Assembly (NCBI RefSeq): GCF_058153355.1
Contig: NZ_CM177019.1
DNA length: 64,000 bases
Direction: 5' to 3' (one strand)
Shown one piece after another: positions 1-3,000 of this stretch (position 1 is the first letter of the stretch; every line of letters begins with the position of its first letter). A program made the position numbers.

Positions 1-3000
1 CACTGAACGAATTCTCTGATGGCAACAAAGTCCGTCTGAGTGATGAGTCTGTCAATGCCAGCATTGACGGTGCAGCATTCCGCGTGGGTGCAGGTGTACA
101 GGCTGATATCACCAAAAACATGGGAGCATATGCAAGCCTTGACTACACCAAAGGTGACGACATTGAGAACCCGCTACAGGGTGTAGTTGGTATCAATGTG
201 ACCTGGTAAGAATAAAGCAGTCGGTTCCCCTGTCGACTGTTATACCCCCTGCAGGCAGCAGTATGCTGCCTGCAGGCTATAAATATCCAGTATTCATGAT
301 GCTGGCTTTTTGCTGATATTTACCCTGAACATTCCTGATACAGACTATTAATACAACCTTATCTGCGACAGATTTCATTTTCTGGATATATTATGAATGA
401 ACAAATCAAACAGGATATCGATCTGATTGAGATTTTATTTTATCTGAAGAAAAAGATTCGTGTTATCCTTTTTATTATAGCTATCTGTATGGCAATGGTG
501 CTGTTGTTTCTGTATATCAATAAAGATAATATAAAAGTGAGTTACAGCCTAAAAATAAACCAGACAACACCAGGCATACTTGTTAGCTGTGATAGCAATA
601 ATAACTTTGCCTGTCAGACCACAATGACTGAAGATGTTATTCAGCGAATTACTACATTTTTTCACACCAGCCCAGATGTCAAGAACAGAGAAATAAAGCT
701 GGAATGGTCAGGAGATAAGAGAGATTTACCAACTGCTGAAGCAGAAATATCTCGCGTGCAGGCGTCTATTATCAAATGCTATGCGTCAGAATATCATAAT
801 GGCAGGCAAGTTCTCGATGAGATACAAACACCTTCAGCAATTAACAGTGAGCTTTATACAAAAATGATATACCTGACCAGGAACTGGTCATTGTATCCGA
901 ACGGTGATGGCTGTGTAACCATAAGCTCACCGGAAATAAAAAGTAAATATCCTGCTGCCATTTGCCTGATTCTGGGATTTTTTCTAAGCATTGTGATTTC
1001 TGTAATGTTTTGCCTTGTCAAAAAAATGGTAGATGAATACAAACAAAACTCTGGGCAGTAATAAACAGCATTCTGATAGAGAGTGCCTGTATAAAGCTGA
1101 AGTGACAATGACCGGGAAGGGAGCCCGTCTTCAGGAATGGATGCCTGTCTTTTTCACTGTAAATATCCTGGCATTATTAATGTCAGGATATTTACAGAAG
1201 AGCAGCATAACCATGACGGAACGGGGTTAAGTCAGGTTGTCCTTAACGCTATTCACAACCTCGTACCGCCTTCAAGTTTATGTCCAGACTTCATATCTCT
1301 CTCAGCAATCCTCAATAATCAGATACACCGCTTTCACCGGACCATGAACCCCGACGACTTTGATAAGCTCAATGTCCGCCGTTGAACTAGGACCACTGAT
1401 GATGTTAATACATGACGGCATTCGTTCACCGGCCTGCGCTTTCTGATGCAATTTTTCTGCGAGTTGCGCTACACGCGGCAGGATTGTGCTTTTACGCAGG
1501 ATAAAAAGAGAAGATTCCGGGAGCAGGCTCAATGAACGCCCGCGCCCGGCGGCGGAAAAAAGAACCACGCCACCCGATTCGGTTAAACCATATTCAGCAT
1601 ATACGACGCCCACTTTAGCCTGCTCTGCTTGTGATATGTTCTCAATACCTTTCGCCGGATCCCAAACAACGGCATTGCATTCCTGCTGCAAACGTTCGCT
1701 AATCCCCAATTCCTCCAGCCTCGTGTCACCGCTAATCACGACCGACTGCTCTCCCAGCTCTTTACACAGACATATTGCAGCTTCTGCGGCCTGCGCCTCG
1801 CTGGTCAGTTCACAGCGCGTCAACATAACATCGCTGGCAAACTGGATAAACGCGTCACAGCGCTGCTGTTGGTTAAGTTCGGTAAGCCGCTCGTTAGCAT
1901 AGTTGTTAAGCGGCGCATCTTCTGCTTGCGGTTCAAGTCGCTGCGGGCGACCCAGTGCCTGAGCAACGTTATTCAAAAATTCGCTCCGATTATCCATTCT
2001 TTTTCTCCTGCGCCTGATGTTTCTTAAACCAACTACGGAAACTCTCTCCGTCGGCTTCAGGAAGATCGCGTGCTTCCATCCAGTCGCTAATCGCGCCAAA
2101 TTTGAGTGGTGTTTTGCCGCCATTGATAAACCAGCTTGCCGCATGAGCACCAGCCATCATCCCGACTTTCCACAATCCTGGATGACTATTGGCATAAGCG
2201 AACATTTTTATCGCCCGTTGCTCTGCTTTTGCGGTGATCCCTTTTTCAGCCATCACCCGACGATGACGCAAAATCAGTTTTGACAGCGGAATACGCACCG
2301 GACACACGCTGTCACAAGCTGTGCATAAAGAGCAGGCGTAGGGTAAATCTTTAAAATCTTTATAGCCGCCAAGTAACGGGGAAATCACCGCACCAATTGG
2401 CCCTGGATAAATAGAGCCATATCCATGACCGCCAATATGGCGATATGCCGGACAAATATTCATACAAGCCCCGCAGCGAATACAGCGCAGCACATCCCGA
2501 AATTCAGAAGCCAGCACCTCAGAACGCCCGTTATCGACAATAACCAGATGAAACTCTTCAGGACCATCAACGTGCCCCGCTTCGCGCGGTCCTGTCAGCC
2601 AGGTGTTGTATCCCGTCAAACGTGCACCAACGGCACTGCGCGCCAGCATGGTGATCAATACATCTACCTCGGCAAACGTGGGGGCAATACGCTCCATTCC
2701 CATCACTGCAATATGCGTTTTAGGCAGCGTGGTACACATTCGCGCATTACCTTCATTGGTCACCAGGCATACCGAACCGGTCTCTGCCACCGCGAAATTA
2801 CAGCCGGTAATACCTATTTCAGCACTGAGGAAATCTTCGCGGATTTTTTGCCGAATGAATAAGGTCATCGCTTCAGGCGTTTCCGGCCCCTCATAACCCA
2901 GACGTTCGTGTAGCACTCGACGGATCTGATGGCGATCTTTATGAATTGCCGGGACCACAACATGAGAGGGCGGATCTTGATCCAGCTGGAGAATGTATTC

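Follow-up and report, generated by a model that had tools for sequence, protein, structure and literature searches.

The 3' end of hyxB and a perfect palindrome at the right boundary of the PAI-X island upstream of ykgH

The window, i.e. the whole stretch of DNA analysed here, comprises 64,000 nucleotides of contig NZ_CM177019.1 (NCBI RefSeq assembly GCF_058153355.1) and opens with the 3' end of hyxB, also known as upaB (1–209, + strand), holding the last 68 codons of an autotransporter beta-barrel and the stop codon TAA (207–209). Downstream lie a perfect palindrome (248–276, +), the right junction of the PAI-X island with core DNA (277–288), and ykgH (393–1061), a core gene on the same strand as hyxB, coding for a protein of 222 aa and starting 116 nt after the palindrome.

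Translation of positions 3–209 (+) gives NPLQGVVGINVTW (in full LNEFSDGNKVRLSDESVNASIDGAAFRVGAGVQADITKNMGAYASLDYTKGDDIENPLQGVVGINVTW) followed by the stop, which is exactly the ...GVVGINVTW end that the initial annotation had read at the opening of the window. Its attribution of this end to a beta-barrel of the autotransporter type is borne out by the match of the 68-residue fragment to TIGR01414 (autotrans_barl, E 7e-13), covering model positions 365–432 of 432, that is, up to the model end, and by the comparison of window 1–209 with annotated hyxB of 12 strains, in which 205–208 of 209 nt are identical (98–99.5%). The gene found under the match in other E. coli genomes adjoins ykgH and bears the RefSeq label "outer membrane autotransporter HyxB". 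This near-identity, together with the place directly upstream of ykgH, identifies the gene as the hyxB/upaB orthologue rather than a conserved core gene unrelated to autotransporters, the one identity that the initial annotation could not have survived. Position 39 is A in the window and G in all 12 compared strains, which replaces Gly by Ser in the HyxB barrel (RLSDES versus RLGDES).

Outer-membrane proteins carry a C-terminal targeting signal ending in an aromatic residue, and the HyxB C-terminus, ...GVVGINVTW, is such an aromatic-ended signal. A C-terminal beta-barrel translocator, the other mark of type Va autotransporters seen here, is detected by TIGR01414 in the fragment and by PF03797 (E 1e-47) in the full-length orthologue of LR-28 (765 aa). 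Judged by its sequence, the opening of the window is thus the end of HyxB/UpaB, a classical (type Va) autotransporter adhesin. The signal peptide and the passenger region are encoded upstream of window position 1; in the LR-28 orthologue, residues 26–489 match the crystallised UpaB passenger, PDB 6BEA (E 9e-243), and from such relatives we infer both the passenger domain and the remainder of the island, which likewise lies outside the window. The C-terminal barrel, with its aromatic ...VTW signal, would insert in the outer membrane and would display a beta-helical passenger binding fibronectin and glycosaminoglycans, barrel insertion and passenger display being established autotransporter biology. 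hyxB and upaB are the same gene (Phan 2013, PMC3789825), and UpaB binds fibronectin and glycosaminoglycans via its beta-helix (PMC6488583), the crystal structure of the passenger being available as PDB 6BEA.

PAI-X is made up of fimX and hyxRAB, was present at a conserved site in 24 of 50 genomes, and seems to be confined to E. coli (Phan 2013, PMC3789825). The gene order in LR-28 is betA, ipbA (= fimX/hbiF), hyxR, hyxA, hyxB, ykgH, and it is identical in AF39, while in K-12 betA adjoins ykgH directly across a 212-bp spacer and the island is absent. The K-12 arrangement given in the initial annotation, with betA beside ykgH, is therefore correct, and the comparison with the K-12 ykgH–betA junction, which had been proposed along with it, locates the end of the island: when the K-12 spacer is aligned to the window and to LR-28, the right end falls at 282/283. 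The K-12 homology of the window starts at 283, from ATATCCAGTATTCATG (ATATCC...), and everything to the left of it belongs to the island. The insertion of PAI-X between betA and ykgH, with no counterpart in K-12, is visible in the window at its right junction, the left one lying outside. Of the PAI-X gene set, the window carries the hyxB end only, while full ipbA/fimX, hyxR, hyxA, and hyxB are present in the closest complete genomes. In LR-28, a BLAST search with the K-12 spacer delimits an island of 5990 bp, PAI-X being ca. 6 kb in size, and the G+C content of this island is 43%, compared with 56% for the bet side in the same strain.

In a search with window 1–1100, ykgH was found in 5190 of 5426 complete E. 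coli genomes and the full stretch in 1829. The hyxB end together with the hairpin (an 88-bp stretch, 205–292) occurs in 1894 of the 5426 genomes (ca. 35%), essentially once per genome, so the suspicion that the neighbour of ykgH is strain-specific has been confirmed, the neighbour being a part of PAI-X.

ATATCC is found at both island junctions in LR-28. A target-site duplication was considered and rejected, since the left junction differs in O157:H7 and AF39 and the repeat at both ends is a feature of LR-28 only; no terminal inverted repeats of the island were found. Strains differ visibly at the left end of PAI-X, upstream of ipbA (L001 8293–8400 compared with L005 5080–5200 and L006 2290–2340), where ca. 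1 kb is devoid of an annotated gene, whereas the right end is almost invariant. In O157:H7 PV15-279 (L005 6124–9855) the island is decayed: ipbA is frameshifted, and an IS1203 has taken the place of the hyxR end, the entire hyxA, and the 5' portion of hyxB. ykgH is interrupted there by an internal stop, but the terminal hairpin has remained intact.

Several observations concern the remainder of the window. Its best identity to any of the 5426 complete E. coli genomes is 97.3% over positions 1–25000; at the proA–pepD end (39001–64000) it is 96.4% for most genomes and 98.5% for one strain, and only 46% of that segment is covered in any complete E. coli genome. These values suggest that the host of the window belongs to a divergent Escherichia lineage. 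Despite this distance, the island end (1–282) is 98–100% identical to that of mainstream strains, which is what a horizontal spread of PAI-X would lead one to expect. An accessory cluster (37491–54488) codes for LysR regulators, aldo/keto reductases, short-chain dehydrogenases, alpha/beta hydrolases, an FMN oxidoreductase, and an MFS transporter, and ends beside proA in a truncated P4-type integrase gene (53868–54488, N-terminal domains only). YkgH has membrane helices at both ends, and its N-terminus gives sub-threshold matches to Wzz chain-length-determinant models (PF02706, 20.1 bits with a cut-off of 25.5; TIGR01006; NF012015); the adjacent genes hyxA and hyxR have been reported to alter O-antigen chain length. 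An assignment of YkgH as a Wzz-like protein was rejected, as the matches are sub-threshold only, no PDB sequence was hit, and BLASTP detected no similarity to K-12 WzzB; a single-sequence AlphaFold model of YkgH (pLDDT 52) was too poor for a structure search.

The palindrome, CCTGCAGGCAGCA GTA TGCTGCCTGCAGG, is built of two arms of 13 nt each (248–260 and 264–276), 100% complementary and separated by the 3-nt loop GTA. The initial annotation had described a perfect 12-bp stem-loop; its perfection holds, while the stem is in fact 13 bp long, 12 bp being obtained if a 5-nt loop is read. It starts 39 nt after the hyxB stop codon, on the coding strand, within the last 35 bases of the island, and since it ends 6 nt before the 282/283 junction, it belongs to the island. 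Folded alone (244–280), it reaches −26.3 kcal/mol (z = −5.4), a value equalled by none of 200 dinucleotide shuffles. Perfect palindromes of at least 13 bp with loops of 3–10 nt number three in the whole 64 kb, with ca. 0.01 expected by our own arithmetic for a uniform random sequence. The two others (10223–10255 and 22806–22840, of 14 and 15 bp, both with 5-nt loops) lie between a convergent HTH-protein gene and fdeC, and between ykgO and ykgL, respectively, and look like bidirectional terminators. Just after the hyxB stop codon, the island also carries an imperfect 9-bp stem-loop (216–241, +; −10.9 kcal/mol, z −3.5), in which one strain has A236G with the pair retained as G-U. Altogether, we assign a probability of about 0.85 to the reading that the window starts with the end of hyxB, the terminal gene of PAI-X between betA and ykgH, followed by an island-borne palindrome serving as a putative 3'-end structure of the hyxB transcript.

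The loop of the palindrome is polymorphic. STEC309 has GCAGCA TAC TGCTGC where the window has GCAGCA GTA TGCTGC, the loop being the exact reverse complement and the arms unchanged. The GTA loop was found in 1482 genomes as a full-length match to a 46-nt hairpin-centred query, and the TAC loop in ca. 398, recognised by a match of the 29-nt palindrome only, on the strand opposite to the flanks; among island-bearing complete genomes the alleles amount to ca. 79% GTA and 21% TAC. Sequence retrieval confirmed the TAC loop in four of these ca. 398 genomes. All five sampled TAC strains have C284, several variants in the core flank, and one HyxB protein accession in common, and this shared haplotype and accession fit a single origin of the TAC allele. 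No sign of recurrent flipping was seen, the five flipped strains, a small sample, representing one haplotype and one HyxB. Mutations that invert a loop flanked by perfect arms have been described as a product of template switching in replication (PMC8794818), and a single intrastrand template-switch inversion across the palindrome would best explain the two alleles.

A degenerate version of the hairpin is found in five genomes, where three stem-breaking substitutions reduce its stability to −9.3 kcal/mol. In all five, a 1.8-kb deletion (1836 bp) has removed most of hyxB and stops 8 nt short of the hairpin. The changes are unusually closely packed (five substitutions, together with the flipped loop, in a stretch of 26 nt), a search for a donor sequence was negative, and they may reflect the deletion event itself rather than relaxed selection. 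Strain 1604D011 (L004 2513–3043) is one of the five carriers of this allele, whose surviving 5' part is only 91% identical to LR-28.

In the hyxB (hyxRAB) transcript the palindrome would fold as a very stable 3' stem-loop, at which transcription would halt or pause, or which would act as a barrier to 3' exonucleases; it would also shield ykgH from read-through out of the phase-variable island operon. A GC-rich stem-loop downstream of a gene is one of the two hallmarks of a Rho-independent terminator; the other, a U-tract directly 3' of the stem, is lacking, the tail being CUAUAAAUAUCC (= CTATAAATATCC), so the palindrome does not qualify as a canonical intrinsic terminator, and 248–276 is not among the sites reported by the terminator scan. 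The only terminator-like site reported by that scan in 1–1300 is a weak 8-bp hairpin followed by CTTTTTG (287–312, +; −8.0 kcal/mol, z −1.4), located in core DNA and present also in K-12. This weak hairpin and its T-run may complete termination; in a plausible arrangement, transcription would end around the core T-run, and the strong hairpin of the island would keep exonucleases out, or termination would be Rho-dependent. Neither loop orientation disturbs the stem. No covariation was detected within E. coli, the stem being invariant wherever hyxB is intact; the whole island end (1–282) is 98–100% identical among strains anyway (the adjacent core, 94–98%), and conservation of the stem therefore carries no weight. 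A role as terminator or stabiliser at the 3' end of the hyxB transcript is favoured by the location on the coding strand 39 nt past the stop codon, by the extreme stability, and by the location of the other two palindromes at gene ends, and we put it at about even odds.

The palindrome may instead be functionless: replication template switching could have produced it as a neutral side effect, and it would simply travel with a near-invariant island that spread recently. Template switching creates and homogenises inverted repeats, and the loop flip, if correctly interpreted above, shows that it acted at this very site; the near-identity of the island end deprives the conserved hairpin of value as evidence of selection, the U-tract is missing, and a disrupted version persists in five genomes. 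On the other hand, the place of the palindrome, on the coding strand a short way past a stop codon, is that of functional 3' stem-loops, the remaining two perfect palindromes of the window also mark gene ends, and every disrupted version accompanies a deletion in hyxB itself. Neutrality is thus a less probable explanation, though one with a real claim. Considerably less probable is an action as double-stranded or extruded DNA, either as a site for a dimeric protein (e.g. the LuxR-type HyxR) or as a recognition or scar structure of PAI-X insertion. The perfect dyad lies 6 nt from the island boundary, and among the products of the island are a tyrosine recombinase and an HTH regulator, which would suit such an action, but neither a related sequence at the left end nor terminal inverted repeats accompany it, and ATATCC borders both junctions in LR-28 only, not in O157 or AF39. 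Fim-type invertible switches (fimS, hyxS) have short inverted repeats around a promoter-bearing segment of a few hundred bp, whereas here the arms are merely 3 nt apart, a spacer too short for a recombinase crossover site. Moreover, when FimX was over-expressed in UTI89 and CFT073, inversion was confined to fimS and hyxS (bioRxiv 10.1101/494401).

Membership in a dispersed repeat family (REP/BIME-like) or identity with a known structured RNA could be suggested by the GC-rich, intergenic character of the palindrome. REP/BIME elements are present in many copies per genome, but the palindrome occupies a median of one place per genome and one locus per genome in 1880–1894 genomes; its arms recur nowhere else in the window or in the LR-28 locus, Rfam yielded no family match but only sub-threshold chance hits, none near the gathering score, and a search with the loop left free found no exact occurrence in 100,044 species-representative genomes. 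The single locus per genome and the Rfam result led us to reject this reading, which we regard as having practically no chance of being correct. The absence from the species-representative genomes agrees with the published confinement of the island to E. coli. The boldest reading, in which the palindrome is not a passive hairpin but a working insulator or cis element setting how far transcription of the phase-variable hyxRAB operon extends into ykgH, or else a structure used at island insertion, is a long shot; were it true, the loop flip would be a visible trace of hairpin extrusion in vivo.

The gene, the structure of its protein, the island, and its patchy distribution among strains are already published. 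For the right junction at 282/283 and the terminal palindrome no description was found in the literature covered, which lies outside the primary PAI-X and UpaB papers, where a hairpin or terminator may be mentioned. The present analysis adds the right boundary of PAI-X at base level, the perfect palindrome at the island's end, with which the hyxRAB transcript may terminate, and a clean natural hairpin-loop inversion polymorphism, which may be of use in engineering or typing PAI-X and in studying ykgH expression.

The locus can be set beside four known systems. It shares with the UpaB/HyxB adhesin of uropathogenic E. coli the gene itself, the LR-28 orthologue matching the crystallised UpaB passenger sequence, and differs in that the window holds only the last 68 codons, with the Ser allele versus Gly in 12 strains. 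With PAI-X (fimX/ipbA–hyxRAB), in so far as the description by Bateman and Seed is relayed in PMC3789825, it has in common the chromosomal site by ykgH and the terminal gene, and there is no difference in kind. Rho-independent terminators and 3' stabilising stem-loops resemble the palindrome in being GC-rich, stable stem-loops placed soon after a stop codon on the coding strand, but in the palindrome no U-tract follows, the nearest T-run lying 30 nt on, behind a separate weak hairpin. Finally, the GTA and TAC alleles differ only by a reverse-complemented loop between perfect arms, as do template-switch loop inversions (PMC8794818); those were described in rRNA, while here the inversion is a population polymorphism in an intergenic bacterial palindrome.
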